A stretch of DNA of 64,000 bases from Flavobacteriales bacterium (lineage in GTDB: Bacteria > Bacteroidota > Bacteroidia > Flavobacteriales_F > PHOS-HE28): contig JAEUTB010000111.1 in NCBI GenBank assembly GCA_016787995.1, positions 14,775 through 78,774 on the forward strand. The letters run 5' to 3'. The translations under genes and the position numbers were made by a program. The notes below the pieces were generated by a model. The model saw only the letters and a program-made list of their open reading frames with translations. It was not told where the DNA came from and ran no database searches. Below, piece after piece: positions 35,010 to 56,248 of the stretch (its first letter is position 1; each line of letters begins with the position of its first letter).

Positions 35010-38000
35010 CTACTCATCGCCCGTCGCGCCATCGTTAGTTGGCTTTCGCTTGCCGCTCCTCTCCACGATCTCTATCTCTTCAGGTGTAAGCCCATACAGA
35101 CCATACACCACCTGGTCGATCTCCCGCTCCACCGCCTCCGCCTTTGGCCCAGCCACCATCCCCAGCCGCTTCTCCACCAGCTTCTCCAGTTGTGTGTCAA
35201 GACTGCGGTTGGCCATTGGCAGAGGCAACTGAGCAATGGACCGTGCCTGTATTTCACTGAAGACCTTCTTCGTGGACTTCAGAAATGTTGTGTAGTAGTA
35301 GTTCCAAAGCTTCGAATTGAACAAGGCCAAAAGCCACTCAGGTGTCCGGTTAGTATCTTGGTTCAGATTAATGACCACAAGCGTATTAAGCGCATAGAAC
35401 TGCTCTTCGTCGAGAGCTGCAATCAAGCTCGATGAAACACGTCGGAAGAAGATCTTCTTCTTGGAGAGAAAGATGTCCTCTCGCTTACAACTATGAATGG
35501 AATCAACATCGTACCGCAAGTAATTTCCAGACCATGCGATGCCATAGCGATGAATCTCTCTACCGTCAATTACCGGCTTGTAGTTCTTGCCCTTGGCCTT
35601 GTTGAACAGATGTGCAGCTCGGTCACCTTTGAGCGCGATTGCCTGGTTTATTGACGATATCTGTCCAAGCTTGATAGAAGAACGGTCGTCGATGTTCTTC
35701 TTTAGGACACGACCAGCATCGTCATGAGCCACCGAGAATCGCAACAAATCATCGCTTGCGAATTCACCTGCCGGTATTGTAGTACTGCTCCATTGGTAGT
35801 CGCTCGTAAACGACGTGACCTTGATAGCGTTTGACGAAGGTCGCGTCCTCTGAAGAAAGAGCGTCACGGCTTCGACCACGGCATCATCGAACGGCAGCTT
35901 TTCGTAGGTCACTATCTCCGCAACCTGTGTCTGCTCCAAAATGAACTTGCGCAATCCATGGTAGTAGTCCTGAGTAAGTATCGTATTCGGTACAATGAAT
36001 GTCAGTACGCCATTTTTCGCAAGCGAGAGTGCGCCGCTTTCAATGAAGAACCCGAATGTGTTCATTCGGCCCATAGATGAAGAGTAGTTGGCGAGCAGAT
36101 ACTTCCGCTGCACGTCGTCGAACCATTCATACATCGCAAGCTGCACGTATGGAGGATTCCCAATCACAATGTCGAAACCCTTGTTCAACCCATACATCCA
36201 CTCGGGGTCGAAGAAGGGCGCGCTGGCGTTCTGGTCGTAGGGGTCCCAAGCGGCGAGCATCTTGGCGGTCTTGGGCTGGAACTCGTGTTCCTGCACCAAT
36301 AGCTCCGCCAGCTCCTCGCGCAATTGCTTGTCCTGCTCGCGGCACCGGGCCTTGCGCTGGGGGGTGCGCGCCTCGAAGTAGTCGTGCCGCACGCGCTTCA
36401 GTTGGGCCTTTTTCCTGTCGATGGCCGGGTTGGTGAAGAGGTTGTCCTGCTCCTTCTCCAACTTCATCAGCGTATTGGCCGCCACGAACTTGGTCTCCAA
36501 ATTGGGTAGGGGGCGCACGCCCAGGTTGGGGCGCTTGGCATCCACGCGCTGGTCCACCACCAAGCTGATGAAGAAGCGCAGCTTGGCGATCTGCATGGCG
36601 ATGGGCTGGATGTCCACGCCATAGATGCCGTTCTCGATCAGGTAGAGCTTGCGGCCGTAGTCCAACGCGTTGTGCTCGAAGGCATCCTCGATGTCCCGGA
36701 TAGTGTTCTCCTTGATCTCCGCATCGTCAAGCTGCTTTGCCTTCTCGATCTGCCGCTCCTTCCATTGGGTGTTCTTGGGATCGAGCTTGTGCAGCACGTG
36801 CACCAGCTTGTGCAGCACGCCCATGGGGAAGGCGCCGCTGCCACAGGCGGGGTCCAGGATCTTGCAACTGTCGATGGCCGCGATGAGCTTCTCGGCCTCT
36901 GCCTTGGAGAATTGGTGGGGCTCTTCAGTGTAGGAAAGCACGTGGCGGAGCTTCGCTTCGATATCGTTTCGTGTGTCGACCCTGTGGGTCGACGGTACGG
37001 GAGCTTCGAGGGATGTTTTGAGGTAGGCGATGAGTGATTCATCCACCATGTAGTTCACGATCTCCCGCGGCGTGTAGAAGCTGCCGGTCTGCTTGCGGGC
37101 GGTGGTCTTGGTCTCCGGGTTGTAGTTGGCCAGCAGGTTCTCGAACACCTTGCCCAACAGCTCGGGGTCCAGCGCCACTTCCTCCTCGATGGGCGTGTTC
37201 TCCGTGATGGTGAACTTGTAGCTACCCAGGATGTCGATGAGGCCGCGCACCTTCTCCTTGCGGGCCTTCTTACTGCCATACACCTCACTGAAGTCCCATT
37301 CCTCGCCCTCGGGGTCGAAGAAGAGCTTGTCCGGCACGTGCAGCGGATTATCCTCCCGGTCGCTGAAGCCATCAATGCGAACGGGAACAAGCTTGCCCTT
37401 CTGCTCCACCTGCTTGTCCAGGCACTCGAAGAGGCCACCGTTCAGGAAGGGGATGGGGTCGAACAGCTCCTTAAGGGTTCCCTTGGGGTCCACGAAGCAG
37501 CGTTCGTAGCGGAACACGTTGTGGATGAAGTAGTGCTTGCTCTGGCTGCGGTCCGCCTCGATGCGGAAGCGGCGCTTGCCCATCTCCGTGTTCAGCGTGG
37601 CGAAAAAGAGGTTCTGCAAGATGGCCTTGTAGTAGAGGCTCTTCTCCTTCGCATCGCTGCGCAGGATCTTCTTCAGCGCCTTGGGATCGAAGAGGGCATC
37701 AGGCACCAGGTCCTTCTCGCGCAGGAACCACACGAACATGAGGCGTGTGATCAGCCGGATGGTGTTGATGGCGTTGCGCTTCTCCTTGTCGCCTTCGGCA
37801 TCCGCGGGCCACTTGGTCACCTCCACGGCATGGAAGTACCAGTTGCTCAGTTCGCGGAAGAAGCGCTTGTTGAGTTCCTTGGTGTCGAGGGTCTTGCGCC
37901 AGGCCTCGTGCAGCTTGGGGAAGTTGGGCACCTCATGCTTCTTGCGCAGTTGCTCTAGGCTCAGATCAAAGAGGATCTCCACATGTGCCCGGTGCGGCGC

Positions 38001-38549
38001 TGTGGTGCGGATATCCTTGATCAGGGTCACCTTCTCCAGCACGTCCTTGCTGCTTTCACGCTTGTGCAGGCGGCGATCGATGACCGCGAAGGACAACGTA
38101 TCGCCATGTTTGAACAGGATCATCGCCGGCATGGCGAAGCACTTGTTCAACTCGCGCGTGATATGACTAAGCTCGGTGCGCGTATAGGCGCCTTCCTTCT
38201 TCGGCTTCAGCTCCAGCACGAAGAAGAGGTAGCTCTCGATGATGGTGTTGTCCACCTGCTCGTTCCTGAACAAACCGTGTTGGGCGCCCAGGTTGTCCCC
38301 AGTGAGCTGGAAGAGCAGGTCGATCTTTTTCCACTGCTCGTGCAGCGCGGTCTTCTTGTTGAAGCGTGGATCGTTCTTCCCGAAATACTCCTCGAATTCA
38401 GCGAAGGTGCCCTTAGTGAAGTAGTTCAAGCGAGGCGCGCTGTAGCCAAGGTTCTTGAGCAGGTACAGGGCGCATTCGGACAGGTCGCCGGTGCCTAGGG
38501 CCTCGATGGCTTCCTTGATGCGCAGTTTCAGGTCTTTCTTCTCGCTCAT
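35010..38549 (-). CDS. large gamma-class N6-adenine DNA methyltransferase with C-terminal target-recognition region (Eco57I/type IIG/PglX/DrmMI-like)
   Basis: Motif I is ILDPACGSGAFP, upstream of motif IV DIVIGNPPYV. The protein is 1179 aa. Its tail, LYGLTPEEIEIVE, is typical of this family. Confidence 0.9.
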   Translation of the reverse strand: MSEKKDLKLRIKEAIEALGTGDLSECALYLLKNLGYSAPRLNYFTKGTFAEFEEYFGKNDPRFNKKTALHEQWKKIDLLFQLTGDNLGAQHGLFRNEQVDNTIIESYLFFVLELKPKKEGAYTRTELSHITRELNKCFAMPAMILFKHGDTLSFAVIDRRLHKRESSKDVLEKVTLIKDIRTTAPHRAHVEILFDLSLEQLRKKHEVPNFPKLHEAWRKTLDTKELNKRFFRELSNWYFHAVEVTKWPADAEGDKEKRNAINTIRLITRLMFVWFLREKDLVPDALFDPKALKKILRSDAKEKSLYYKAILQNLFFATLNTEMGKRRFRIEADRSQSKHYFIHNVFRYERCFVDPKGTLKELFDPIPFLNGGLFECLDKQVEQKGKLVPVRIDGFSDREDNPLHVPDKLFFDPEGEEWDFSEVYGSKKARKEKVRGLIDILGSYKFTITENTPIEEEVALDPELLGKVFENLLANYNPETKTTARKQTGSFYTPREIVNYMVDESLIAYLKTSLEAPVPSTHRVDTRNDIEAKLRHVLSYTEEPHQFSKAEAEKLIAAIDSCKILDPACGSGAFPMGVLHKLVHVLHKLDPKNTQWKERQIEKAKQLDDAEIKENTIRDIEDAFEHNALDYGRKLYLIENGIYGVDIQPIAMQIAKLRFFISLVVDQRVDAKRPNLGVRPLPNLETKFVAANTLMKLEKEQDNLFTNPAIDRKKAQLKRVRHDYFEARTPQRKARCREQDKQLREELAELLVQEHEFQPKTAKMLAAWDPYDQNASAPFFDPEWMYGLNKGFDIVIGNPPYVQLAMYEWFDDVQRKYLLANYSSSMGRMNTFGFFIESGALSLAKNGVLTFIVPNTILTQDYYHGLRKFILEQTQVAEIVTYEKLPFDDAVVEAVTLFLQRTRPSSNAIKVTSFTSDYQWSSTTIPAGEFASDDLLRFSVAHDDAGRVLKKNIDDRSSIKLGQISSINQAIALKGDRAAHLFNKAKGKNYKPVIDGREIHRYGIAWSGNYLRYDVDSIHSCKREDIFLSKKKIFFRRVSSSLIAALDEEQFYALNTLVVINLNQDTNRTPEWLLALFNSKLWNYYYTTFLKSTKKVFSEIQARSIAQLPLPMANRSLDTQLEKLVEKRLGMVAGPKAEAVEREIDQVVYGLYGLTPEEIEIVERSGKRKPTNDGATGDE

Positions 38550-43299: not shown

Positions 43300-43368
43300 G
43301 GAAGTCAGAAGCTTTCAATTGCTCCGAATGTAGCAAATATCAAGCTCGTCAAGTGGAACTTACAGGTA

Positions 43369-45117
43369 CTATACCGACAGATCCTGCTGCGGCGTGTACG
43401 GCTTCGTCACCTTCTTCGTCGGACCACCCGGCAACAACCAATGTTCTTGCAGATCGTTCTTGATGGTCTCGCGCACGAACCGTGAACCTTTCCTATTGAG
43501 GTACACCAACTTGCCGGCCCAGAACAGCAAGCGGTTGAGCCAACCATCGGTGTTCACCAGATCGGTGAGGATCGCGTTGGTGCGCTCGCGCAAGGGAGCA
43601 TCGAAGCGGTCGATGTCCTCGGTACGCCGCATCGGCCAGTTGCAACCACTGTTGGCGAACACCGGCTGCAGCTCTCGTTCGGTCCGTGGCTTGAAGATGG
43701 GGATGATCTGGAAGCCAAGATCGTTCTCTTCTACGGAGCGGAAGAATTCCTGCCGACCCGGGGTCAGCGCCGCATAGGAATCGCGAAAGATGGGGTTCTT
43801 TGTATTCGCGGGCACCGTGAAACTGTCTCGTAAGAATTTCTCGCAGTTGTAACGCCCCAAGAAGTAGTCGTGCACGCGGAACTCCTTGTGCAAGAAACCG
43901 CTGAACCCACCGAGCTGTCCGCAAGCGATGGCGTCTGAGCCCTTAAGGTCCACTCCGGGTGCAATGGAAGTTGGCAGATCACGACTGGGACTGATGAGGA
44001 ACTGACCGGCACCGGCGGATCCCATGGCTTCATCCAAGGTCTTGGGCTTGGTGCGCAGCTGCCCGATCATGGCGCCTAAGGTGTTGCCCATGGTGCGTAA
44101 CAGGGCGTCCTTGCCCTTGAACTCCTCGATGGTGGTGGGGAACGGATCGATCATCAAGATGGTGCCCTTGAAGGTGTCGTAGCTCTGCCGTTCGAAGGCA
44201 TCCTGCTGGCCGGTGCGGTCGCAGATCAACTCGCGCACCCGCTCGAAAGGTTCGTTGTTGATGAGGCCGCCGTCCACGTTCATGGACTTGTACTCGTCCA
44301 CGATCACGGGATTCCGCTCTGTGATCCACCTGAACCACGGGTGATCGTTGATGTAGTCCTTGGGCCGCACCACCTCGCGCGCCTTCAGGCCGACCGGGAA
44401 AGCCGCCGTGGCCATGGCCACTTGGCGGGCGATGGTGACCTGGCGAGGTACGGTGAAGTCCAAGGGGATCCAACCATCGCGCCGTTCTGCATAGGCAGCC
44501 AGGGTGGAGTTGAGCCGGAAGCAGCCATAATCGTTGTGCACCTGCACGTGGTAGGGCTCCATGGCCCGTGTGCGCGAATTGAAGGTGACGCTGTAGTAGA
44601 AACCTTCGAGGTTGGTAAGGGTGCTGAAGACCCGCATATCGTTGGCGATGTACGGACGCGGCACCCAGGAACCAGCACCGCTCAAGGCCCGTTCTGCCGT
44701 GCGGTCTATGAAGGCCGTGTTGAGGAGTGACTTCGTGTAGGACTCTGTGATGTCGTTGGTCAGCAGCATCTGCTGGAACATATCCGGATGGGTAAGGTCC
44801 ACCCAGGTATGGTAGAACAGGTTGTTGGGGCGTTGGGCCATCACATCATCACCCTCTTTCCACTTGGCAGGCTCGATACGGCCATGGAGCGCCGTGGCCG
44901 TGAGCAGGCCGATGATGCCGCCAGCAGAGGCCCCACCGATGTCGCAGATGCGCACTTGGTGCATAGGTGTGTTGGCCGGGTCCCGCACCTTTTCCTGTTC
45001 CCAGATCTCCAGTGCCTCCAACAAATAGTCCATGACACCGGCGGAGTACGCCCCGGCGGATACGGCACCGGCCAGGCAGAGGCCGATCTCAAAAGGTTGC
45101 TTCGGTTCGTTGCTCAT
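43369..45117 (-). CDS. patatin-like phospholipase with long C-terminal extension
   Basis: Start MSNEPKQPFEIGLCLAGAVSAGAY (Gly-rich oxyanion region). The nucleophile elbow is GGASAGG (GxSxG). The catalytic Asp motif is NVDGGLINNEP. About 300 aa follow the catalytic domain. Confidence 0.85.
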   Translation of the reverse strand: MSNEPKQPFEIGLCLAGAVSAGAYSAGVMDYLLEALEIWEQEKVRDPANTPMHQVRICDIGGASAGGIIGLLTATALHGRIEPAKWKEGDDVMAQRPNNLFYHTWVDLTHPDMFQQMLLTNDITESYTKSLLNTAFIDRTAERALSGAGSWVPRPYIANDMRVFSTLTNLEGFYYSVTFNSRTRAMEPYHVQVHNDYGCFRLNSTLAAYAERRDGWIPLDFTVPRQVTIARQVAMATAAFPVGLKAREVVRPKDYINDHPWFRWITERNPVIVDEYKSMNVDGGLINNEPFERVRELICDRTGQQDAFERQSYDTFKGTILMIDPFPTTIEEFKGKDALLRTMGNTLGAMIGQLRTKPKTLDEAMGSAGAGQFLISPSRDLPTSIAPGVDLKGSDAIACGQLGGFSGFLHKEFRVHDYFLGRYNCEKFLRDSFTVPANTKNPIFRDSYAALTPGRQEFFRSVEENDLGFQIIPIFKPRTERELQPVFANSGCNWPMRRTEDIDRFDAPLRERTNAILTDLVNTDGWLNRLLFWAGKLVYLNRKGSRFVRETIKNDLQEHWLLPGGPTKKVTKPYTPQQDLSV

Positions 45118-45181
45118 CGGGGTGTCGAGTATGTTGAATGCATGTTCTGTCGTCAAAGGCCAGGTGGGTAAGTCCTTTCCC

Positions 45182-45862
45182 TCACGGGACCTGCACACCG
45201 GCGGGCACTGCCATGCGCGCCGAGTCGGCCTTCAGCGGTTCAAGTTGCTGTGCGCAGCATTTCACTGGCATTGGCCTGCAAGTGGTCATGGCCGCGTGGC
45301 AGGTGCAGGCGTTGGGTGGCACCATGTGCTTATCGTGTACACCAGAGCCGATGCAGCCATTACTGGAATACGGCGAACGCTTCTTTCTGGGCTTGTGGCT
45401 GGGTGGTGCATCATTCCTATCACATCCGCAGCAGGGGTTCACCAAGTAGATCTCGGGCGCTTGGCAGGGTTCTGCCTTGCATCGGTCGTTGCTCTCGGCT
45501 GCAGTGAATAGTTGATCGATCTTCACGGTAATGGTCTCTAAACGATCGCTCATCCAGCAGAACTGAGCGAAGCCGAACAGCATGGCGACTAGTACCAGGA
45601 AAAAGGTGGCCCAGACCCCACGACGCACTCGGTTGGTGAGGGACCTGAGTTTCTTCTCCCGCTCAGGCGTGGCCTTCGTCTTCTCGACGGCCTCTTCCAG
45701 CGATCTGACCTTCTCACTGAAGTCTTTAAGCTGTCCGGCAAGTGTCTCTTCGGCACTATCGAAGACTTTGTTCCGCTGTCGTATGATCTTGTCAAGGTCC
45801 TCCAGGCGGCTGCGCTGGTCAGAGAGTTCGTTCAAAATATCTTGGAGAGTGGGCGTAGCCAT
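45182..45862 (-). CDS. coiled-coil / TM / Cys-rich extracytoplasmic-tail protein
   Basis: 226 aa. The N-terminal part is helical, followed by the TM helix VWATFFLVLVAMLFGFAQF after RVRRG. The C-terminal ~110 aa hold about 11 Cys (PCCGC, ACTC, KCC). Confidence 0.5.
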   Translation of the reverse strand: MATPTLQDILNELSDQRSRLEDLDKIIRQRNKVFDSAEETLAGQLKDFSEKVRSLEEAVEKTKATPEREKKLRSLTNRVRRGVWATFFLVLVAMLFGFAQFCWMSDRLETITVKIDQLFTAAESNDRCKAEPCQAPEIYLVNPCCGCDRNDAPPSHKPRKKRSPYSSNGCIGSGVHDKHMVPPNACTCHAAMTTCRPMPVKCCAQQLEPLKADSARMAVPAGVQVP

Positions 45863-45891: not shown

Positions 45892-48800
45892 TCAGGCCAT
45901 TTCATGGGCCGCGATATTCGTGTCCAGGGCTTTCAGGCGCCTGCGGTAGAGTGAGGTTCCAGCATTGGATCTGCCCTGTACCACCCTGCGTTCAATGGCG
46001 CAGGAAAAGTGGTAGAGGTTGTCGGCGTAATCATCCTCCAGAAAAAAGAGATCGCCAATGAGGCGTCGTAGGTGCTTCCCGCCGTTGTGCACGCCCATGC
46101 CCCGCGAGAGGTCTTCCCGGGCGAGGGTGTAGTGCATCAAGGGGTCAAGCCGGTTCTCCACGTTGCCATCGGCCCAACGACTAACATCCGCATGGATCTC
46201 CGCTGCGGCCGCCCTTACATCCGCAGAGCCTGGGGAGGAGATCGGATAGGTCTCCATGCTGCGGAGCAAGGCTGTCCAGTTGCCCAAGCGCATACGCGCT
46301 AAGGCTATCCGGGTATGGTTATTCACGAAACTGATGCCCGAGAGGTTGAAGATGTTGATGAGGTGGAAACAACAGTGGATGGAATCAGCCACGAGTTCGC
46401 GGATACTTTCACGGCCTGGCATGTGCGCGTTCAAGGGTAGTGCCGCCCCGATATGGCGATTCCAGGCATACACCGGAGTCGTGCCATCGAAGATGCCGCT
46501 GCGGGCAAGGTCCGCTCGTATCCAGTTGTACTGCACTGTGAGCTCCAGCAGCAGGGCTCGTGTGAACTGTAGGGTGACTAGGTGTTTGTGCACCATCAGG
46601 AATTCCCGTGCGTCATCCAAGGCGCGCGCAAGTGGCGGTCCGGGTTGGCGATGTGTCAACTGCAAGCGATGCCAGAGGATGTCCAGCTCCACCAGTTCAG
46701 CTTGGTAGGAGATACCACGAACGGACCGCACTGCGGATGCTCCGGCTGAAGGGTACACGATGGGCTTTGGTGATTTGGAGCGTTGCTGCACATCGATGTG
46801 CCCGTTGTATTTGTGCACGGTGGCCACGGCCCAGCGTTTCAGATCCAAGACTTGGTCCAAGGCATTCGCGGAAAGCGAAGTCCCATTGGTATCCAACATC
46901 ACGAATAGCAACTTCTTCAATTGAAAGACGGCCTGGAACGATTGACCGCTTTCGGCATATGCGCGTGCCGAAAGCAAAAGGAAATACGCCACTTGCCCAT
47001 ATTGGGTATCGGCGAGGATCCAGTTGACCCGTATCCCCATGAATTCGTTCGAAGTGGGGTCGGGGTATGCTTCGGCGTAACCCTCTGCGATCAGTGCATC
47101 TGCATACTTGGAAATCGCGCTGGCTGCGAGTTGATGTGTGGCGTTCGTCGTCTGGTCATCGGCAAGACCAGAGGTCATCCACCGCTGGTGGTCGAGCCGA
47201 TTCTCAGGTTGTCGAAGGAGCCTAAGGGCACGTTCCCACTGATTCGTCTTCGTTGTATCGAGCAGATGGTCTACGGCGGTTCGATAAAGAAGGAGAGAGT
47301 CCTCCTTCATCTGCCCCGGTATCAGCGAAGGTCTGTTGGGTTCGTGTTTCAGGCGCAGATTGCTGAAAAAGAGAATGGAGCCAGCCTGGGTGGTGGCCAT
47401 GGACAGGAAGCGTGGTAGGGCAAAATTCCTTGGTCTGGACATGTTCTTCTTGGCGATAGCCTGGGTGAACTTGTAGATCCAATCCACCGATGCATACACG
47501 GTGGTCATGCTTTGTGCTTTCACCCGGAGCGCCAACGCATACTGCATGGTCAGGCTGAGCAATCGTATGTCCAGCCTTCTTACGTCCACATTGTAAGCCC
47601 TTTGATCATTTCCAGCGGGGACTCTCCGGACCACGTCGAGGATCAGTTCGCACAAGGAGCTCACGGTGATCACGGCTTCGTCCATCGCCTTTATCCGCTC
47701 GAGACAATGAGCCTCCTTCAGCTTCAACCGAACGTATTCGTGGAAATGATCCAACTCGAAGTGCTTTCCTCGATGTGCGCTGCGCTCAAAGTGCAGAGCC
47801 GCTGAACGATAATGCTCCAGCGCATCTGCATGTTCGGCATCGTAGAAGTGAAGATCACCTAGCTGTGCGTGTAGGTCACTGATCGGCTGGATGCCCCATT
47901 CCTTCTGCACCACGTTAGTTTCCTTGAACTGCCGGTGCAGATCCTTCAAGCGTTTGTTGAACAATTGTTTTACGGCTTGGGACTCGTCCAACGTGAAGTT
48001 CATAGCAGCCGAATCCAGTTCAGAGACCTTGGAGAAGTAGGCGATCTCCTGGTAGGTCTTGGCGAAGAATACATAGCCGTAAAGTCCGTTGTCTATAGTT
48101 CGCAGATGCTGATCGGATAGGCGCAGCAGGATGTCGCTGATGTATTTCCGCACTTCGGGCACCTTGTTCAAGGCAATGGCCTCGGGTGCCATTTCCAAGT
48201 GGGCAAAGCTGAACGCGTTAGGGTGGAATTTGAAAAGGTGGTCGAGCAGGTAGGTGAGCGAGACGAGTTGCTTGTCGTTGAGCGATCGGTAGTAGTGCGA
48301 GTGGATGCTGGTGAAGGGGCGGCAGAAGTAGGTCATCAGCATATGCGCATGTTGAGCCGTTGCGTCGAGCCGCAAAAAGAGGCCGGGGCCATCATACCCC
48401 AGGTCCATCACCAGGTTGTTCGGATCCTGGCGTAAGCGATCCAAGGCCTGCTTGCTTTCCACCGGATACATACTGCGCTCGTAGAGCTGCATGAGCTTCT
48501 TTGGGATCCCATTGCTGCGGAAGGTGAGGTAGATGGCATAGTTCTGGACGGCTGAAAGCATCTGGTCCAGCTGCTCCTGCGCCAGTTGTCGGTCAGGTTG
48601 TGCGAACAACCAGTTCCGATACGAAGCGCTGACATCGTTAATGCGCACCATGCGCGCACCGGGCTGGCGAAGTTGCTCCACTAGGCTGCGCGGTAGCAGG
48701 GTTTCTAGTACGAACCGTTCGGTGGTGGTAGTGAGCCCGCTGCGTTCACTGTCCCCATCGCGTTGGCGCTCCTTCAAGAAGGTGGGCACGTAGACCACGT

Positions 48801-50178
48801 GGTTGAACACACTACTGAAGAAGGCGTCACGGTTGCTTGTATCGGCCATGACCGCATCGAACATCTCCCGGCTACCGATGAAGATGAACTTGGCTTGGGC
48901 CACGTTCAGGAAGTGCTTCAAGTTGGCGAACAGCGCAGCGATGGCCTCCTGCCGCCGCCGGTAGTGGTAGGCGGCGAAACTTGTATGGCGTTGCTCCTCA
49001 TGTTCGTCATCTGTTAGGTCCTGGTCGTCCTTCTGCATCACCCCGGTCGGCGCTCGCGGCGTGAGTTTGTCCAGTTCATCGACTAGGAACACGATCCGGT
49101 TGTGACCTTGCCGGTATCGCGGTTGATCATACTCCACCTTCGTGAGGCGGCAGAGTAATCGCATGGCCCACTCGGGCAATATGGGGGGACTGTGGGAGTC
49201 CATGATACCGAACTGGTCGAGGATGTCGGTCAGCTCGATCTCGATCTCCTTGGTCTTCGCGATCGGATAGGAGACGCTCTTACGCCTACCAAAGGCGAAA
49301 GGATTGTAGGTGGCACCTTGCAGCCCACGCACATCCTCGGTGGTCACCGATGCACCGATGCGGGCGATAAGCAGTTGTAGGCGGTCCTTCAAGCGCGAGG
49401 TGGATCGATCGATGCGATCCTGGAAGGTCCTTCGCAACAACTGGCGCCAGACCCAATAGGTGAATAGGCCCACCAAAGCGGGTAGGAGGAACACATCCAC
49501 GAAGCGCATCCAGTAGTACCCGTCCTGCTCTGCCTTGATCGGTCCGAGCCCGTGCATGACCAGGCCATCCGTGCAGACGAGGCCTGCTCGGGGCGTTGTT
49601 GTGGAACCGCCCGCTGGAACCTCGTGGTGACAAGGCCCCATGGTGGTGAACAGGACATGCGGGCCGATGTGCGGCAGCGCCACGAAGAACGCGCCGATGC
49701 CGAAGAGATAGGGCAGCACCCTGCACGCCATCCCGACCCTGTCCCACGGCCGCATCCGGATACGCCCCATGACCTCGAGCAACTTCACCGCCATCAAGCG
49801 CAGGATGGCGCGCTGGTCGATCTCATCCTCCGCTAGGTTGATCTCCAGGTGATGTACCCGAACCTCACCGGGTCCGCCAAGGTCCCAGACCAGCTTCTTC
49901 CAAAAATTCCTCCGAAGTCCCATGGTGGACTCCTTGTTGAGCTTTCGCAGGACGTTGCGTGTCAGACTCGTCTTACCCACACCGCGATAGCCCGTGACCA
50001 GGATGGAGCCGCTCCTATTGGCCGTATTATCAAGGATACGCGCCTTCAGATGCGCTTCGATCGTGCTGCGCTCGATGTACTTATCATCGCCATCCAACGA
50101 CACGTTCCCCGCTTGTGGCGAGTCGTAGAACTTGTACCACGGCAGTCGGATGTAGAGGTTCGGAATATGATTACGCAT
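45892..50178 (-). CDS. giant KAP/PifA-type P-loop NTPase with ~1000-aa helical-repeat C-terminal region
   Basis: Walker A is GYRGVGKTS (49966-49992). Two hydrophobic helices lie at ~49645-49728 and ~49441-49503. Walker B, RIVFLVDELD (49072-49098), follows them. This insertion topology is the KAP family hallmark. Confidence 0.75.
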   Translation of the reverse strand: MRNHIPNLYIRLPWYKFYDSPQAGNVSLDGDDKYIERSTIEAHLKARILDNTANRSGSILVTGYRGVGKTSLTRNVLRKLNKESTMGLRRNFWKKLVWDLGGPGEVRVHHLEINLAEDEIDQRAILRLMAVKLLEVMGRIRMRPWDRVGMACRVLPYLFGIGAFFVALPHIGPHVLFTTMGPCHHEVPAGGSTTTPRAGLVCTDGLVMHGLGPIKAEQDGYYWMRFVDVFLLPALVGLFTYWVWRQLLRRTFQDRIDRSTSRLKDRLQLLIARIGASVTTEDVRGLQGATYNPFAFGRRKSVSYPIAKTKEIEIELTDILDQFGIMDSHSPPILPEWAMRLLCRLTKVEYDQPRYRQGHNRIVFLVDELDKLTPRAPTGVMQKDDQDLTDDEHEEQRHTSFAAYHYRRRQEAIAALFANLKHFLNVAQAKFIFIGSREMFDAVMADTSNRDAFFSSVFNHVVYVPTFLKERQRDGDSERSGLTTTTERFVLETLLPRSLVEQLRQPGARMVRINDVSASYRNWLFAQPDRQLAQEQLDQMLSAVQNYAIYLTFRSNGIPKKLMQLYERSMYPVESKQALDRLRQDPNNLVMDLGYDGPGLFLRLDATAQHAHMLMTYFCRPFTSIHSHYYRSLNDKQLVSLTYLLDHLFKFHPNAFSFAHLEMAPEAIALNKVPEVRKYISDILLRLSDQHLRTIDNGLYGYVFFAKTYQEIAYFSKVSELDSAAMNFTLDESQAVKQLFNKRLKDLHRQFKETNVVQKEWGIQPISDLHAQLGDLHFYDAEHADALEHYRSAALHFERSAHRGKHFELDHFHEYVRLKLKEAHCLERIKAMDEAVITVSSLCELILDVVRRVPAGNDQRAYNVDVRRLDIRLLSLTMQYALALRVKAQSMTTVYASVDWIYKFTQAIAKKNMSRPRNFALPRFLSMATTQAGSILFFSNLRLKHEPNRPSLIPGQMKEDSLLLYRTAVDHLLDTTKTNQWERALRLLRQPENRLDHQRWMTSGLADDQTTNATHQLAASAISKYADALIAEGYAEAYPDPTSNEFMGIRVNWILADTQYGQVAYFLLLSARAYAESGQSFQAVFQLKKLLFVMLDTNGTSLSANALDQVLDLKRWAVATVHKYNGHIDVQQRSKSPKPIVYPSAGASAVRSVRGISYQAELVELDILWHRLQLTHRQPGPPLARALDDAREFLMVHKHLVTLQFTRALLLELTVQYNWIRADLARSGIFDGTTPVYAWNRHIGAALPLNAHMPGRESIRELVADSIHCCFHLINIFNLSGISFVNNHTRIALARMRLGNWTALLRSMETYPISSPGSADVRAAAAEIHADVSRWADGNVENRLDPLMHYTLAREDLSRGMGVHNGGKHLRRLIGDLFFLEDDYADNLYHFSCAIERRVVQGRSNAGTSLYRRRLKALDTNIAAHEMA

Positions 50179-50336
50179 GGATCCTCGTTTCGTCCTTGTT
50201 CCTTGCTCCGATTAGGATCAACGTGCTTGCTGCCGGTCTTTCACCGTGCGGAGGAACTCCTCATCCACCTTCTTCGCGGTCCTTCGGATGCTGGTGCCGC
50301 CAGCATGCGGCTCTAAACCACCTTGGATCATCCACC

Positions 50337-50957
50337 CTACCATGTTGTATCAAAATGAGTTGTTTGGCGCCGGAATTCGAATGACCCGAACAACGGCTCG
50401 TTCGGCGGAAGTTGCCAATAGTTACCCTTCACATTGTTATCATCAAGAACCTCTCCTTCTGCATAGCCCTTTAGGTGTGTATCCTCTTTGGTTATCTCAT
50501 ATGTATAAGCGATCCTGTGGTCGCTGATGAAATCACCCCAAGATGTTTGCCACTGATACGGGATATCCAAGGTGACCTGTTTCACCACCTTTCCCGAAGT
50601 GTCTTTCACTTCTTCCCAGAGCCTGTTGCCTTGCAATTTCCATTGCAGGCCGTTCGCCGTGGTGACCAGTGAGATCTCGCACACCCCGCCATGGTTCTTC
50701 ACCTTTGACTTACAGCGATACTTGTACTTTCCGACAATCCGGGAGTACTCATTCAATTGCTTGGCCGTGATGGTGTTCGGTGTGCCTTCACTAACCACCT
50801 TGATGTATTGCTCAAGAAACGGCAATCTGATCTGCTGTCCATTCAATCTCAACCAGAATATGATCGTAAGGATGAAGAAGAAGATGAGCAGCAAAAGGAT
50901 CAGAGCGTCCTTGGGTTGGCGTTTGGCAAAACCCCATATTCTATTCGCGAGCTCCAT
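50337..50957 (-). CDS. N-terminal-TM, beta-strand-rich protein, unknown function
   Basis: 206 aa. TM segment ALILLLLIFFFILTIIFWL is followed by alternating aromatic and polar beta-like segments (YKYRCKSKV, WKLQGNRLW, AYTYEITK). Confidence 0.55.
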   Translation of the reverse strand: MELANRIWGFAKRQPKDALILLLLIFFFILTIIFWLRLNGQQIRLPFLEQYIKVVSEGTPNTITAKQLNEYSRIVGKYKYRCKSKVKNHGGVCEISLVTTANGLQWKLQGNRLWEEVKDTSGKVVKQVTLDIPYQWQTSWGDFISDHRIAYTYEITKEDTHLKGYAEGEVLDDNNVKGNYWQLPPNEPLFGSFEFRRQTTHFDTTW

Positions 50958-51038
50958 CAGTTCGAATTTTGTTCCAGCCCTCTGCCATGGTTGTTCGGAT
51001 CAACACTCCTTCACGTTCATCGAGGGAACTGGAGATCC

Positions 51039-51881
51039 TCAATTGTTCTTCTTCGCCTTATCTATGGTCTGTGTAAAGACACTCATACCGACGGCAACTC
51101 CGAACCAAGGCTGGCCTTGGTAACGCCAACCGGAGTCATCATCGAATAGCATGTCCCAGCCAATGAACACTCCAAATTGTATCCTATCACGGTCCACGAC
51201 CAATCCTATTGGAAGGGTCAGTGCTGCACGCTCCTTGCTTTCCTTGACTTCGCCATTCGTATTAAGGCTGTCCACTGTGATGGAACTGAACGCCGCGCCA
51301 AGGCATAGTGCGATGCCATTATCCCTAGACCCATTGAGCCGAATACCTCCTATACCACCCAGTGAGACATCTTTTGTGACTACGCCACTCTGTGGGCGGT
51401 ACTTAAAAGGGAGTACTGCCGTACCAAATATGGCCGAGAGTCCGCCACCCTCGAAGGGTACCGCGTTCTGCTTCAGTTCATCCGCCGTGATGAGAAAGTA
51501 GCGATCAGCTTCACGCTCTCCCGCAGCGATCTTTTCCGGATCGTAATTATATCGATAGGCCATTTCCTCTTCGTGTTCGCGGAGATCACGATCCCACCAG
51601 TACGCCCGGTACTTGGTCTTTGTCTTGAGGGTGGTGCTCGTCGCCCAATCATAAAAAGCGACCACGTAGGCGCTTGGCGCAACCCCTTGGGGTCCTATGC
51701 TCCTAACCAGTGTGAACTTCGCGGAATATGGGCATAGTCGATGAACATAACCTCCGGTGTCGCCAATGATAGAACATTCGTGAAGGATGACATCATTGGC
51801 CAACTGATACTCCTTGCTTTCCTGGGTCATGCTCCACAGCGATGCTTGTGCAGCTGCAATGAATAGTAGTGCCCTTTTCAT
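51039..51881 (-). CDS. secreted beta-rich protein (possible outer-membrane or porin-like)
   Basis: Internal start MKRALLFIAAAQASLWS is a signal peptide. The C-terminal half is Gly/aromatic-rich with alternating segments (GGLSAIFGTAVLPFKY, WFGVAVGMSVF). Confidence 0.55.
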   Translation of the reverse strand: MKRALLFIAAAQASLWSMTQESKEYQLANDVILHECSIIGDTGGYVHRLCPYSAKFTLVRSIGPQGVAPSAYVVAFYDWATSTTLKTKTKYRAYWWDRDLREHEEEMAYRYNYDPEKIAAGEREADRYFLITADELKQNAVPFEGGGLSAIFGTAVLPFKYRPQSGVVTKDVSLGGIGGIRLNGSRDNGIALCLGAAFSSITVDSLNTNGEVKESKERAALTLPIGLVVDRDRIQFGVFIGWDMLFDDDSGWRYQGQPWFGVAVGMSVFTQTIDKAKKNN

Positions 51882-51984
51882 GGTGCGAGAGATAACGGAT
51901 GGTTCCTGCATGTCTTCGAGCAATCGTCTTCTGTATTCGACATTCTATAAAATGTGGTATCCAGGATTTGGCACATTATTCCAT

Positions 51985-53571
51985 TCACTTCGGAAAATTC
52001 CCCCGCGCGAATTCCTCCGCATTCCTGTGACAGATCCCCTCCACCGCGTGCTCCACGGCGGTGGTGGAGGTGAGGTGGTGCAGGCAGCTGGGTGGGTTGG
52101 CACTTTGCCGTTCGTGGTCGATGGCGGCGATGAGCTGGGCGCGGAAGTCGGCGAAGAAGAGGGCCGTGGGGTATGGGTCAACGGGGTCTATCCAGCCTTC
52201 GAAGTCGGTGCCGATGGACAGGCACTCCCAGATGCGGTGTTTCTCGGCCAGGGGGAATTCACTGTCGGGTTTTCCATAGACCACCTCGAGTATGGCCTTG
52301 ATGTTGGCCCAGAGGATGGTGATGTCGTTCTCGGCATTGGCACGCACACCCACGATGCGTTGGTCGAAGCTGAGACCGATAAGGCCGTTCGTGCGGTGGA
52401 CGAGAAGGACATCCTCGTCGCAGATGTTGATGTTCCAGCGGTTGAAGCGGCTGCCCGGTGCGGTGGCGCCGTCCTTTTCGTCACCGCTCTGGGCGATGAG
52501 TTGCTGCAGGGTCTTGACACCCGTGTAGGCCACATGGCTGGCGATCACGGGGATCACATCGGGGGTTGACCGCTCAAGTCCTGGCCGCACCACGCTCTCG
52601 TAGTATTCATGCCGCGCCTTGGCGCTCATGTGCTTCACGTCGATCAGGATGCGGTAGCCTGCCGCAGGGTCCGGGTCGCCACTCTCCTTGATCGAGAGGA
52701 TGCGCCGGAGCACGCGCCAGCCTTCGGGCGTGAAGCCCTCGTTCATCTGGACCTCCTGCCCCATGATGTAGGTGGCCTTGCCCGGGAAGCTGTGCGCATG
52801 GCCACAGAGCTTGTTGGCGAAGTGGTGCGCGAACGTGATGAAGAGGATCGGATGGTCCCATTGTTTCACGCGGTCCACGTTGGCCAGCCAGTCGGTGACC
52901 GTGCCGCGGTCCGTGCCCAGCGCGTGCCCGCCCTCGATGGTGAGGATCATGGCCACCTTGTCCGCAGCGAGAGCATTGACCAGCTGGGCCTTGGTGCGCG
53001 GGATCACGTAGGTGCCGGTGGCGTCCAGTTCATTCGGATAGTCGCGTCGCCGCTTGCGCTCGCTCTCGAAGATGTTGCGCACCGTGGTGGGCGTGAGGAT
53101 GCTGTTGCGCGTTTCCACCCCATCCTTCAGCGTGGCGAAGGCGTACTCTTCGTTGAGGTAGTCCCAGTAGCTGTACGATGCGCTCTGGAAGTGGTCGATG
53201 GCCGCATCGGGGATCCACATCACGAAGAACTGCAGGTAGTCGCGTAGCGGAAGCACCTGCGAGGTGAAGGCGCGCGTGAGCGCTTTGTACCAGCGGTCGG
53301 CCCCGGTGATGCCCTGCATGTCGATGGAGAAGAAGCCTTTCTCCACGGGGTACAGCGCGTTGAAGGTCAGGCGCACCTTCCCGTTCCAGAGCTTCACCAG
53401 ATCGGCCTGGGCGTACTTGCTGGCCATCTTGCGTCCGTTGAGCGCTGCCCGGCTGTCGCTCACGATGGTCCAGGGGTGGTATTCGCCCTTGCGCTCGTAG
53501 CGTTCGCGCTGGTGGCGCATCCACAAGAAGCCCTTGGTGTGGTTGTGGGCGTGCAGGTCCGCGAAGCGCAT
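51985..53571 (-). CDS. membrane-dipeptidase (M19)-like metal-dependent hydrolase
   Basis: The motif series is ADLHAHNH, ILTIEGGHALG, ITFAHHFANK, IDVKHMS, VIASHVAY and IGTDFEGW. It parallels the M19 DGHND / EGG / DxSH / SHS / GxDFDG pattern. Confidence 0.6.
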   Translation of the reverse strand: MRFADLHAHNHTKGFLWMRHQRERYERKGEYHPWTIVSDSRAALNGRKMASKYAQADLVKLWNGKVRLTFNALYPVEKGFFSIDMQGITGADRWYKALTRAFTSQVLPLRDYLQFFVMWIPDAAIDHFQSASYSYWDYLNEEYAFATLKDGVETRNSILTPTTVRNIFESERKRRRDYPNELDATGTYVIPRTKAQLVNALAADKVAMILTIEGGHALGTDRGTVTDWLANVDRVKQWDHPILFITFAHHFANKLCGHAHSFPGKATYIMGQEVQMNEGFTPEGWRVLRRILSIKESGDPDPAAGYRILIDVKHMSAKARHEYYESVVRPGLERSTPDVIPVIASHVAYTGVKTLQQLIAQSGDEKDGATAPGSRFNRWNINICDEDVLLVHRTNGLIGLSFDQRIVGVRANAENDITILWANIKAILEVVYGKPDSEFPLAEKHRIWECLSIGTDFEGWIDPVDPYPTALFFADFRAQLIAAIDHERQSANPPSCLHHLTSTTAVEHAVEGICHRNAEEFARGNFPK

Positions 53572-53577
53572 GGCGGC

Positions 53578-54651
53578 TCAGTATTGGAACACGGTGGTCT
53601 TGCCGTTCAACACCTCCTTCACATCGTGCACGACACTCGGGCTGTTCATGTAGTACCAATGGTGCGCGATGTTCTCTCGAAGGGTCTTGTCATCCGAGAT
53701 GTAACTGACATCGGCTTGGATCACGCCGTCCGGCAGGGGCACGGTGCGCCGGGCTCCCCAACGTCCCAGTCGATTGAAAGCGTTCTTGGTGCGTTCACTG
53801 ATCCCCAACGCCTTGTCCTCGTTGTGGTAGTACACGTGCATGCGCTCGCCCAGCATGATGGCATTGTGCAGGGGTTTGCCCGGCTCCAGACCATCATCAT
53901 CCACATCGGCGGCCATCAGGAGGATCTCGCCGAAGACACTGTTGGGGCGCACGTTACGCGCGAAGAGTTCGGCCATCATGCTCTCGAACACCCGGTTGCC
54001 CATGCTGTGGCACATCAGGTGGATCTTCTGGGCGCAGAAGACGTTGTTCATGTCCTTCACCCTTCGCTTTCGTGCTGCCGTGACCAGGTCTTGGAAGAAA
54101 CTGGTCATGGACTGGAAAGAGCGCGCCATGGCGTAGCCGGTCTTCACGGCATCGCGTGCATCATCCCGGTACCGGGTGAGGCTGCCGCGTGATGGCCAAG
54201 TGAAGAGGATGATGTGCCCGATCGGGCTATCAGCCGGTGCCACGTAGCGCTCGTGAAGGTCGGCCAGTGTGGTGAGCGCGCCTTTGAGGTCACTGTTGTA
54301 GCCGTGGACGAAAACGAGGAAGTGGCCTTCGCCGGCCTTGTCAGCCTTCCCCGTGGCATGGAGTTCCTCGAACACCTGTATGCTGGGCGGTACCACCCCT
54401 GCTGGATACTTGCCATGGAGCTCTTTGTACTCCATTTCGGCATCGGAGAGGTCGGGGAGGATCTCGATCTTGAAATCGTCCAGGTTGCGCGCCTTCGCCG
54501 GATCGAAGGTGACCGTGCCGTACCGCAGGTTGTCCATAGCCTCTTCCTTGCCATCGGCGCGCAGGCATTCACTCCTATTCACGGAGACGTACCCGCCCTT
54601 GCGGCTACCTTTGATGATCTGGCGGTTAGTGATGATGTAATGCGTTGCCAT
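53578..54651 (-). CDS. alpha/beta hydrolase, DUF900-like
   Basis: Internal start MATHYIITNRQ. Motifs are FLVFVHGYNSD...ILFTWPS and the nucleophile elbow LMCHSMGNRV. Confidence 0.7.
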   Translation of the reverse strand: MATHYIITNRQIIKGSRKGGYVSVNRSECLRADGKEEAMDNLRYGTVTFDPAKARNLDDFKIEILPDLSDAEMEYKELHGKYPAGVVPPSIQVFEELHATGKADKAGEGHFLVFVHGYNSDLKGALTTLADLHERYVAPADSPIGHIILFTWPSRGSLTRYRDDARDAVKTGYAMARSFQSMTSFFQDLVTAARKRRVKDMNNVFCAQKIHLMCHSMGNRVFESMMAELFARNVRPNSVFGEILLMAADVDDDGLEPGKPLHNAIMLGERMHVYYHNEDKALGISERTKNAFNRLGRWGARRTVPLPDGVIQADVSYISDDKTLRENIAHHWYYMNSPSVVHDVKEVLNGKTTVFQY

Positions 54652-54676
54652 TTGCAATAGAGTTGGATGATCGCTA

Positions 54677-55396
54677 TCAGCCCTTGTTCGGATCCACGAA
54701 ACCTGTGACCCGATCGATGAGTTCCTCGAACCGGGTGGGATCGAAGCCCACGATGAAACCGATGCCGGACAGCACGCAAGCCATCCGTTTGTAGGCTTCT
54801 TCACGGATGTCCGATCCTTCCGTGGTGACATCGCTGAAGAGGTGACCTTCGAAGAAGCCCCAGGTCGCGATGAGCACCAAGTACACGAAGAAGCCACGGC
54901 TAAGGGAAACCCATGGAAGCTCGTACATGAAGGAGTACCGTCTGATCATGCGTTCAGGGATCTTACCCTCCCCCTGTGCAAAGGCGTTCAGCAAGCGGAT
55001 CCACATGCCCTCGAATCGGAAGTTGTAGCTGGTGCAGCCACCGACGAATGCAGCCAGAACGCACAGGAGTCCCACGTTGGTCGGCGTCCAATAGAATAGG
55101 ATGGCGGCCAGGGCTTCGCTCCTTGTCAACGTTTCAACGAACGCACGTGGGGGGTCGAATTCCAAGGTGCCACATTCGTAGTAATTCCGCATGGCGATGC
55201 GGTAGGGCGCACTGTCCATCGAAGAGCCGACGGTGAACACGGCTACCCATGCTGCAATGCCTAAGAGACCAAGACCCATGTACAGCCCTTGCCATAGCCG
55301 AAGGGGCTTCAACTTGGCCATTTGTTCGAGCACCGACCCACGTCCACTCGGTGGTTGCTTGGGCACTTGATCCGCTGTGTCTTCTGTCGTGGTCAT
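54677..55396 (-). CDS. multi-pass membrane protein, unknown function
   Basis: Internal start MTTTEDTAD. At least 5 hydrophobic helices (e.g. LYMGLGLLGIAAWVAVF, VGLLCVLAAFVGG, FFVYLVLIATWGFF). Confidence 0.5.
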   Translation of the reverse strand: MTTTEDTADQVPKQPPSGRGSVLEQMAKLKPLRLWQGLYMGLGLLGIAAWVAVFTVGSSMDSAPYRIAMRNYYECGTLEFDPPRAFVETLTRSEALAAILFYWTPTNVGLLCVLAAFVGGCTSYNFRFEGMWIRLLNAFAQGEGKIPERMIRRYSFMYELPWVSLSRGFFVYLVLIATWGFFEGHLFSDVTTEGSDIREEAYKRMACVLSGIGFIVGFDPTRFEELIDRVTGFVDPNKG

Positions 55397-55409
55397 CGGT
55401 TGCGACTTT

Positions 55410-56057
55410 TCATTCCACCCACCGATACCCCAACACCCTCCGCGCCCCATACCCCGCCACACACACCTTGTTGCTTTGGTTGCCGCCCAACACTTGGTAG
55501 CCCGTGCCTTTCGTTTCGAGATAGAAGGCCACATGCCCCGCATTGGGATTGTTCGGATCGCTGCGATCGAACACGACCACACAGCCGTATTCGGGTGCGC
55601 TCAACTTGCGGCCCCACTTCAGCCAGCTGCGCGCGGCAGCGGAATTGGTGCCGACGATGCCCGCCTGTTGCATGCACCAGTTCACGAAACCCGAGCACCA
55701 AGGCGTTTCATCGCTGGTGGCCGGGTTGGTGGTACTCCGCAGGTATTGGATGATACGCGGGTTATGCTCCGGTCCTGGGTATTCCTGCACGCCCAGCTCT
55801 GCGCGGGCGATGGTGATCCATGCGGGTTCGTCCACCGGCGGGGCGCCGGGTATGGCTTCCACATGGTATTTGTTCACCCAACCTTCCAGCGTGCCGTCGC
55901 GCAAGGTGGCCTGCACACGGAGCCAGTCGCCCTGCGGTCCGGAGAGGCGCAGCAAGGGAGTACCATAGGGCAGACGGCCGATGATGTTGTCGCCGAGGGC
56001 GGCGGTGCGTCGTATGCGCAGCACGCTGGCCGTGGTGCGGTGGGTGGGCAATGGCAT
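55410..56057 (-). CDS. SH3-like plus TIGR02594/CHAP-like cell-wall amidase family protein
   Basis: Start MPLPTHRT. The SH3b-like region is ...GDWLRVQA...EGWV. It is followed by NPRIIQY...TPWCSGFVNWC...GHVAFY....LGGNQSN, a Cys-His papain-like pattern. Confidence 0.7.
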   Translation of the reverse strand: MPLPTHRTTASVLRIRRTAALGDNIIGRLPYGTPLLRLSGPQGDWLRVQATLRDGTLEGWVNKYHVEAIPGAPPVDEPAWITIARAELGVQEYPGPEHNPRIIQYLRSTTNPATSDETPWCSGFVNWCMQQAGIVGTNSAAARSWLKWGRKLSAPEYGCVVVFDRSDPNNPNAGHVAFYLETKGTGYQVLGGNQSNKVCVAGYGARRVLGYRWVE

Positions 56058-56248
56058 GGTGGTGGTCTCCTCCTCTACTGTTCGTGCACCGTGCACGAGC
56101 AGTGGGTCAAACCTCATGCTCCTAAGCGCCCTTCACCAAGCGCCGAGGGGGGGCGATCCACCGGGGTGTTCCCCGCAATTCACCCGGGCAAGGGTGTGGC
56201 GGATGGTGCGGAAGACTTAACACACGATTCGGTGGACTTGTCCTAAAC

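Follow-up and report, generated by a model that had tools for sequence, protein, structure and literature searches.

What kind of nucleoside triphosphatase (NTPase) stands at the end of the defence island in this Flavobacteriales contig, and does the membrane-spanning segment inside its catalytic core make it a KAP protein? The gene lies in a 64,000-nucleotide stretch of assembly GCA_016787995.1 (contig JAEUTB010000111.1, positions 14,775 to 78,774; hereafter the window), and the original prediction, made from the sequence alone, had described its product as a KAP-type NTPase with a very long helical-repeat tail. Profile, structure-model and neighbourhood comparisons place the protein instead in a large, unnamed, Bacteroidota-centred family, which joins a STAND-like series of nucleotide-binding domain (NBD), lid, probable winged helix and TPR array to a transmembrane (TM) insert and is apparently unrelated in sequence to KAP and YobI. 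As to function, a membrane-anchored, STAND-like signalling NTPase acting as a self-contained anti-phage sensor and effector, by analogy with Tmn, is on balance considered probable.

The open reading frame (ORF) reported at 45892-50178, with 1428 amino acids (aa), is present. Its orientation had been overlooked: the gene lies on the minus strand, as a single open frame started by ATG, and the plus-strand translation of the same interval contains many stops. Public metagenome contigs, the largest of 213 kb, encode an identical protein (P0001), and the N-terminus is conserved family-wide. In comparison with P0002, an 83%-identical relative, the NTPase part has a ratio of non-synonymous to synonymous substitution rates (dN/dS) of 0.01-0.03, and the whole protein one of about 0.1; the gene is functional and under purifying selection. 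A promoter and terminator scan of the 41.8-56.5 kb region gave counts at or below shuffle expectation and was uninformative, as expected for a Bacteroidota-type host. The parts of the gene, with secondary structure from AlphaFold2 (AF2) and hydropathy as the best 19-residue Kyte-Doolittle mean (KD19), are as follows.

45892..50178, minus strand: complete NTPase gene, stop codon included, 1428 aa, from the ORF list and its translation
49966..49992, minus strand: Walker A (P-loop) GYRGVGKTS, aa 63-71, with G63, R65, G66, G68 and K69 invariant in 18 relatives
49666..49749, minus strand: predicted TM helix 1, AF2 helix aa 144-171 with its hydrophobic core at aa 150-168 (KD19 1.81), conserved in position and not in sequence
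49516..49665, minus strand: predicted extracytoplasmic loop, aa 172-221 (pLDDT <50), poor in K/R family-wide and variable in length and sequence
49438..49515, minus strand: predicted TM helix 2, aa 222-247 (KD19 1.73), continuing into an Arg-rich cytoplasmic helix (AF2 helix 222-257) with a positive-inside flank
48739..49407, minus strand: second half of the NTPase core, aa 258-480, from AF2 secondary structure and invariant columns
49066..49098, minus strand: Walker B RIVFLVDELDK, aa 361-371 (AF2 strand 360-367), with D367, E368, L369, D370 and K371 invariant
48319..48738, minus strand: helical lid and probable winged helix, aa 481-620, from the AF2 helix/strand pattern (pLDDT 80-92) and weak Foldseek matches (E 1.5e-3)
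47899..48318, minus strand: family-specific conserved middle module, aa 621-760, with a near-invariant 'NFTLDES' and dense invariant columns from D635 to L744
45895..47898, minus strand: TPR-like alpha-solenoid and proposed sensor arm, aa 761-1428, all-helical in AF2, TPR-like by Foldseek and the fastest-diverging part of the protein

Both nucleotide-binding motifs stand where the original prediction had put them, Walker A at aa 63-71 and Walker B (RIVFLVDELD) at aa 361-370. The region between them was examined in an AF2 model of aa 1-760, built from an alignment of 18 sequences (mean pLDDT 67.5). The first half of the core is modelled as strand 57-63, the P-loop, helix 69-89, strand 107-114 and helix 122-139. 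There follow TM1, the loop, TM2, a helix, a beta-hairpin and two helices, all ahead of the Walker B strand (360-367); beyond it come a disordered acidic loop (375-402), helix 401-426 and strands 430-436 and 460-464. The second half of the core (aa 258-480) thus reads helix, beta-hairpin, Walker B strand, acidic loop, strands 4 and 5, and holds the invariant residues R409, N419, K421, H422, F423, K430, D446 and R450. This predicted order of elements fits an ASCE-type core, AAA+/STAND in kind, which the hairpin enters after strand 2 and helix 2, ahead of the Walker B strand. Given that position, both halves of the ATPase would lie in the cytoplasm, tethered to that side of the membrane.

When aa 1-760 were used as a profile in an exhaustive HMMER search, 1863 cluster representatives passed E<=1e-3, 1277 passed E<=1e-10 and 884 passed E<=1e-30, which amounts to a family of at least 884 clusters (50% identity), mostly from Bacteroidota. 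Word-indexed searches had given the picture of an ultra-rare protein with about 18 members, a sensitivity artefact that the exhaustive search overturned. No model of the family was found in Pfam, NCBIfam or PADLOC, and its members are annotated merely as 'ATP-binding protein' or 'hypothetical'. A pattern scan of one genome per species located the family in at least 166 of the roughly 185,000 species. Among them, the best 80 are almost all Bacteroidota (Saprospiraceae, Flavobacteriales, Cytophagales, Chitinophagales), the few others being Ignavibacteria, Nitrospirota, Calditrichia, Cloacimonadota and Acidobacteriota. One metagenome-assembled genome carries two copies (L029 and L046).

The two hydrophobic stretches that had been noticed between the Walker motifs are present, at aa 151-178 and 227-247, with best KD19 values of 1.81 and 1.73; every other 19-residue window of the protein stays below 1.5. 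Hydropathy, the AF2 helices at 144-171 and 222-257 and a positive-inside charge pattern together bear out the prediction of two TM helices at this place. In the 18 closest relatives (23-83% identity) hydrophobic segments occupy the same alignment position between the motifs, their sequence being unconserved. The 150 best family representatives were then scored, a segment being counted as TM-like at KD19 >= 1.6. Such segments lie between Walker A and Walker B in 137 of the 150: two in 51 proteins, three to nine in 83, one in 3 and none in 13. Elsewhere they are infrequent, with 7 proteins having any before Walker A (none in 143) and 31 any after Walker B (none in 119). By these counts the hydrophobic pair is a family trait and not a product of chance. 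Among the 51 two-helix members, the fraction of K+R is 0.226 and 0.213 in the two flanks (15 residues on the cytoplasmic side of each helix) and 0.093 in the connecting loop, compared with a whole-protein mean of 0.134, and the loop falls below both flanks in 40 of the 51. This is the positive-inside pattern expected if both ATPase halves are cytoplasmic and the loop faces outward.

Does this hairpin identify a KAP NTPase, as had been concluded by taking the topology for the defining feature of that family? Pfam matches to the window protein included the following, each short of its cut-off.

AAA_16: 30.9 bits, cut-off 32.6, P-loop region only
AAA_22: 24.3 bits, cut-off 27, P-loop region only
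KAP_NTPase (PF07693): 19.4 bits, cut-off 20, profile positions 7-48 of 293

Across the 18 members, AAA_16 matched 18, AAA_22 15, AAA 10 and KAP 9. AAA_16 was the best Pfam model in every one (best E 1.5e-8), and KAP_NTPase, at E<=0.01 in its nine (best 9.4e-6), was confined to the P-loop and always ranked under AAA_16. Natural members without TM segments gave weak matches to AAA_16, ATPase_2, nSTAND1/3, iSTAND and NACHT, and none to KAP. When the insert was spliced out of the window protein, the scores were 37.8 bits for AAA_22, 33.9 for AAA_16, 27.2 for KAP (positions 7-56, the P-loop) and 26.3 for AAA, the last covering the region from Walker B to sensor 1. The direct comparison used the F-plasmid PifA and 120 proteins of its clade. 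The family alignment met PifA in hhalign with 18% probability over 32 columns at Walker A, and a 150-sequence family profile met the 120-sequence clade profile with 21% at Walker A and 9% at Walker B; with hmmsearch the family HMM (hidden Markov model) had no PifA match at E<=10.

A true KAP NTPase of the Kidins220/ARMS-PifA family, fitted with an unusually long sensor tail, would account for a TM hairpin inside a P-loop domain, for the weak KAP_NTPase score and its rise to 27 bits in the spliced construct, and for a Walker B of the form hhhhDELDKxxP, which resembles hhhhDDLDRLEP of PifA. KAP proteins are likewise P-loop NTPases, some with TM helices within or beside the NTPase domain (PifA has none), that carry C-terminal regions of unknown function, and phage exclusion has been shown for PifA and EF_KAP. 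Such an assignment is nevertheless quite improbable: at its widest the profile match spans positions 7-56 of 293, AAA_16 and AAA_22 always score higher, members devoid of TM segments turn to AAA_16, ATPase_2, nSTAND and iSTAND rather than to KAP, and PifA and its clade align at the Walker motifs only. KAP membership found no support in the family members, the TM-less members, the spliced construct, hhalign or hmmsearch, in all of which the Walker motifs alone align.

The proteins that the family HMM does match colinearly, through Walker A, Walker B, sensor 1 and lid, are soluble AAA_16-type NTPases. Such remote relatives (P0019-P0033) have a 'GYRGVGKT' Walker A and an 'FDELD' Walker B, and their fusion partners are Ser/Thr kinase and FHA modules or a second STAND NTPase, of NB-ARC type; outside the TM-insert family, they seem to be its closest relatives. 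Because these relatives and about 9% of the members lack the insert, the insert itself appears to be a derived feature.

The predicted order NBD, helical lid, probable winged helix and TPR sensor fits that of STAND/Avs and of AAA_16-TPR proteins of the MalT/LAL type, in line with the rank of AAA_16 and with the AAA_16 nature of the nearest relatives. The window protein departs from that type in its TM hairpin inside the NBD and in having no terminal nuclease, protease or TIR effector; furthermore, all Pfam STAND matches (NACHT, ATPase_2, nSTAND and iSTAND among the weak ones) fall below their own cut-offs, and Foldseek ranks ORC/Cdc6 and TnsC above any solved STAND structure. With the N-terminal model, ORC1, TnsC, Cdc6 and ORC4 led the Foldseek list, weakly (E 1.5e-3, TM-score 0.19-0.40). 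These are proteins with an AAA+ core, lid and winged helix; no solved STAND structure was in the top 50, and NSF (3j94) was present. A profile search of the PDB gave P-loop matches only, with ORC4 at E 0.002. By structure and by PDB sequence alike, the N-terminal 620 aa thus match ORC/Cdc6 and TnsC best, at E of about 1e-3; these proteins differ in having neither TM insert nor TPR tail, and the window gene has no DNA-replication or transposition context. Taken together, these comparisons suggest an AAA_16/STAND-like (ORC/Cdc6-like) NTPase core.

C-terminal to the core, residues 484-604 form a confident helical bundle in the AF2 model, followed by a helix/strand unit, which fits a lid and a probable winged helix. 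The next region, aa 621-745, is the most conserved of the family outside the Walker motifs, with D635, D646, K650, H652, P665, E666, N727, F728, L730, D731, E732 and S733 invariant and with aa 601-720 100% identical to P0002; Pfam has no match in it. Within it, the segment 'SELDSAAxNFTLDES' (aa 692-745, window ~47944-48105, minus strand) is nearly invariant yet has pLDDT <50 in both AF2 models, aa 692-736 being of low confidence in each, and may be a docking or auto-inhibitory element.

A second AF2 model, of aa 700-1428, is all-helical (pLDDT 76.8, pTM 0.82), and Foldseek matched it to the TPR-type solenoids of LGN/Pins, separase, Ski3 and IFT-A (E from 2e-4). The helical-repeat character of the tail, which had been proposed from a segment at aa 786-827, and its likeness to the sensors of STAND/Avs proteins are therefore supported. 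Its length of about 1000 aa did not hold: lid, probable winged helix and conserved non-repeat module fill aa 480-760, and the repeat arm therefore spans about 670 aa (~760-1428). Near its end lies a conserved, helical polar cluster (H1364, D1383, D1386, H1390, E1396 and R1397; aa 1364-1397, window ~45988-46089, minus strand) within 'FLEDDYxDNLYHFxCALER'; no Pfam family matches there, and the cluster could bind a ligand or a metal, or serve as an interaction surface.

The arm is also where the protein changes fastest. Relative to P0002, identity is 99% over the N-terminal 140 aa and 98-100% over the N-terminus as a whole, and only 52-68% over arm residues 901-1200; the synonymous divergence (dS) reaches saturation in the arm, compared with 0.3-0.5 at the N-terminus. 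This indicates that the gene is a mosaic or else that its arm evolves much faster than the rest.

The Pfam, PADLOC and NCBIfam libraries include models of YobI/Tmn, the other group of P-loop NTPases relevant here. No YobI-ATPase match was obtained in Pfam, whether in the 18 members at E<=0.01 or, with the limit relaxed to E<=1, in 7 proteins, and NCBIfam gave nothing meaningful, with no YobI model among its matches. At the HMM level, then, membership in YobI/Tmn is not supported, any more than membership in KAP.

The comparison with Tmn is nonetheless instructive. Tmn, an NTPase of the YobI family, has solenoid arms and carries two TM helices within its P-loop domain (PMC13001434, a 2026 bioRxiv preprint), and PifA lacks TM helices, so that a TM insert is no exclusive hallmark of KAP. 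The architecture that had been called unusual has precedents in Tmn (PMC13001434) and in KAP NTPases with unknown C-terminal regions, which protect Enterococcus against phage in a Walker B-dependent manner (PMC13552941); the layout of a membrane-insert NTPase with a helical arm is, in other words, already known from Tmn and KAP fusions. Tmn assembles as a decamer and responds to T2 RIIB, its ATP hydrolysis being coupled to Mg2+ export and plasmolysis, and PifA is cited in the same preprint as causing membrane permeability lesions upon T7 infection (PMC13001434). Tmn has no conserved operon and combines a conserved engine with a variable sensor (PMC13001434), a pattern with which the divergence between the window protein and P0002 agrees.

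A very divergent branch of YobI/Tmn, working like Tmn as a decameric hub that couples ATP hydrolysis to Mg2+ export and plasmolysis, would explain much of the shared layout: in each case a single gene of ~1300-1400 aa, outside any conserved operon, encodes a P-loop NTPase at the N-terminus, with Walker A at about residue 65 and two TM helices separating it from Walker B, and at the C-terminus a long and variable solenoid, entirely helical, to which the sensing of phage proteins is ascribed (PMC13001434). NSF (3j94), on which the Tmn NTPase was superposed (PMC13001434), also occurs in the Foldseek list. We regard this relationship as very unlikely, in view of the empty Pfam YobI-ATPase search, the absence of Tmn from the PADLOC matches and of YobI from the NCBIfam matches, and the arms, which Tmn's description otherwise sets apart: Tmn has coiled-coil and ARM/HEAT arms, whereas the window family has a lid, a probable winged helix and the 'NFTLDES' module before a TPR-like array. 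The window family further differs in carrying from 0 to ~9 TM helices, in being overwhelmingly from Bacteroidota and in having been found on no plasmid or phage.

In the window, the NTPase gene is the last of a 22-kb same-strand defence island, whose other genes include the following.

27836-29965, minus strand: SF1 helicase (AAA_11/AAA_12)
30002-30691, minus strand: AbiU2-like HEPN protein
30696-32072, minus strand: GmrSD (DUF262 and HNH)
32069-33355, minus strand: DUF3644 with an EC042_2821 restriction endonuclease-like part
33435-34652, minus strand: PDDEXK_4 nuclease
35010-38549, minus strand: type IIG-like methylase/restriction protein, 1179 aa
38560-41934, minus strand: HKD(PLD)-Snf2 helicase, PADLOC candidate 'C3a139 HKD+Snf2' (1e-121)

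The HKD-Snf2 and type IIG genes may form a DISARM- or BREX-like unit. Beyond the island, the Por_Secre_tail domain of the protein encoded at 24439-26898 points to a Bacteroidota host, sorting domains of the type IX secretion system being typical of that phylum.

An all-against-all BLAST of 666 neighbours within 6 kb of the gene at 79 loci of relatives found no conserved partner, the largest neighbour cluster reaching 8 of the 79, so that the NTPase appears to be a one-gene unit. The 131 nearest neighbours, classified with Pfam and PADLOC, are heterogeneous and include the defence genes MADS, WYL, AriA/PtuA-like, AbiLi, HEC-01 and PDC-S14; response regulators and Por_Secre_tail proteins are also found among the family's neighbours. 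On contigs inspected by hand, the gene was accompanied by type I restriction-modification (R-M) and Abi_C, by type I R-M, or by PLD and DUF4357, or it stood alone between housekeeping genes. On several contigs the gene is solitary. In all, relatives adjoin type I R-M, Abi_C, WYL, AAA_15/21 and PLD genes. As a side observation, the 1850-aa member P0015 (L008, 6850-12150) is followed on the same strand by a 1766-aa ORF with no Pfam match, which may be a paralogue or a partner.

These neighbourhoods bear on whether the protein has to do with immunity at all. It might be a non-immune, membrane-tethered signalling or scaffolding ATPase of Bacteroidota, active for instance in envelope or surface regulation, that came to lie beside a defence island by chance. 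The size of the family (at least 884 clusters) and its concentration in one phylum, the many housekeeping and regulatory neighbours, response regulators and Por_Secre_tail proteins among them, and the lack of any member on plasmids or phages would suit such a role. It is judged unlikely, since no partner or operon is conserved, only ~166 species genomes carry the gene and one assembled genome holds two copies, the sensor arm diverges to an extreme degree, and R-M and Abi genes are repeatedly adjacent.

A second question raised by the locus is whether the NTPase acts with the genes that follow it. The immediate flanks are as follows.

45182..45862, minus strand: downstream gene of a 226-aa protein, 29 nt past the NTPase stop, with a coiled-coil, one TM helix and a Cys-rich tail
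43369..45198, minus strand: downstream gene of a patatin-like phospholipase (Pfam Patatin, 2.2e-9), 609 aa from GTG or 582 aa from ATG at 45117
50218..50331, minus strand: upstream 37-aa ORF, left over from the 3' end of a gene for a trypsin-like protease

The 226-aa protein has its coiled-coil at the N-terminus, its TM helix at aa 83-101 (KD19 2.09) and the Cys motifs CCGCD, CTC and KCC, and gave no family match. The trio of NTPase, 226-aa and patatin genes recurs at the P0002 locus, where the identities are 83%, 51% and 96%, respectively; values so discordant suggest mosaic assembly. At the DNA level three blocks are conserved between the two loci: a CHAP-domain gene (55415-56188), the NTPase gene with 130 nt upstream (45973-50307), and the 3' part of the small gene with the patatin gene (43359-45436). 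Between the CHAP and NTPase genes, the whole ~5 kb has been replaced, and the sequence past the patatin gene differs as well. Over 29 aa, the 37-aa ORF shares 93% identity with the C-terminal end of a 257-aa trypsin-like protein whose gene lies upstream of P0002, and by this match it marks the recombination junction of the replaced upstream cassette.

The exchanged segments themselves (window 50308-55414; L003 1618-7141) are unlike cassettes between the CHAP/SH3 and NTPase anchors. The one in the window encodes a 239-aa protein, a DUF900 alpha/beta hydrolase, a 528-aa protein (weak M19) and proteins of 263 and 206 aa, and the one in L003 a 398-aa protein, an S8 peptidase, a 758-aa protein and the trypsin-like protease. 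From its gene content, 50308-55414 looks like a swappable cassette of secreted or hydrolytic proteins.

Since the trio is kept while the outer flanks differ, the three genes travel as a block, and they are tightly packed on one strand, with a 29-nt gap followed by a 17-nt overlap or a 64-nt gap, depending on the patatin start. A three-gene operon could thus be imagined, in which the NTPase is sensor and switch, the Cys-rich 226-aa membrane protein an adaptor and the patatin a membrane-degrading effector, comparable to the CapV-type patatins of CBASS. The probability given to it is low. The trio is limited to two closely related loci, with neither a 226-aa nor a patatin homologue nearby in the 79 other genome loci or in six other inspected contexts; a metagenome scan with the patatin protein returned five homologues (38-50% identity), none with the NTPase or the 226-aa gene; and the three identities are discordant. 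With the trio confined to two related loci and patatins occurring elsewhere without these partners, the two downstream genes are therefore regarded as lineage-specific neighbours rather than as parts of the core system, and possibly, at most, as an optional accessory.

A defence role for the NTPase by itself is supported by its place at the end of a defence island, the R-M and Abi genes beside its relatives, its patchy occurrence, and a conserved engine joined to a fast-evolving or mosaic arm. By analogy with STAND/Avs proteins, Tmn and PifA, the variable solenoid would bind a phage-derived protein; binding would release nucleotide-dependent oligomerisation or ATP turnover by the conserved engine; and the clustered TM inserts, two here and up to ~9 in relatives, would then upset the membrane or ion homeostasis and so stop the infection. 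The NTPase showed no enzymatic effector domain, so the membrane insert is its most likely output.

Several observations weigh against this anti-phage reading. Housekeeping genes are frequent neighbours of the relatives (for example glycine cleavage, cytochrome bd and UvrA); tblastn against PLSDB plasmids and GenBank phages found no family member; and the only PADLOC match is of the P-loop, to SspF. The N-terminal model is of moderate confidence (pLDDT 67.5) and its Foldseek matches are weak, reaching E 1.5e-3 at best, and the TM assignment comes from hydropathy, AF2 helices and charge bias rather than from a dedicated predictor. Some 9% of the relatives lack the insert, which means that not every member can act through the membrane, and the C-terminal polar cluster could be an overlooked catalytic site.

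To our knowledge, membrane-acting phage defences are poorly understood, with only Tmn and a few KAP proteins tested; we know of work on them almost exclusively in Proteobacteria and Firmicutes, and of few characterised defence systems in Bacteroidota. Should the family consist of immune sensors, a major single-gene system would be added to the Bacteroidota, and a repeated origin of the membrane hairpin in an ATPase core would be suggested, on the assumption that it was gained independently in three families. Members in which 0, 2, 4 or more helices are inserted occur naturally and form a ready-made comparison series for the function of the insert. A bolder proposal, which is possible though less than probable, is that the family represents a third independent origin of a TM insert in a P-loop NTPase, after KAP and YobI/Tmn, this time in a STAND-type host, and that its inserted helices (2 to ~9) are the effector, brought together by ligand-triggered, nucleotide-dependent oligomerisation into a pore or ion pathway. 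If so, these proteins would be the bacterial analogue, resident in the membrane, of NLR resistosomes; they would be widespread in Bacteroidota and missing from current defence catalogues.

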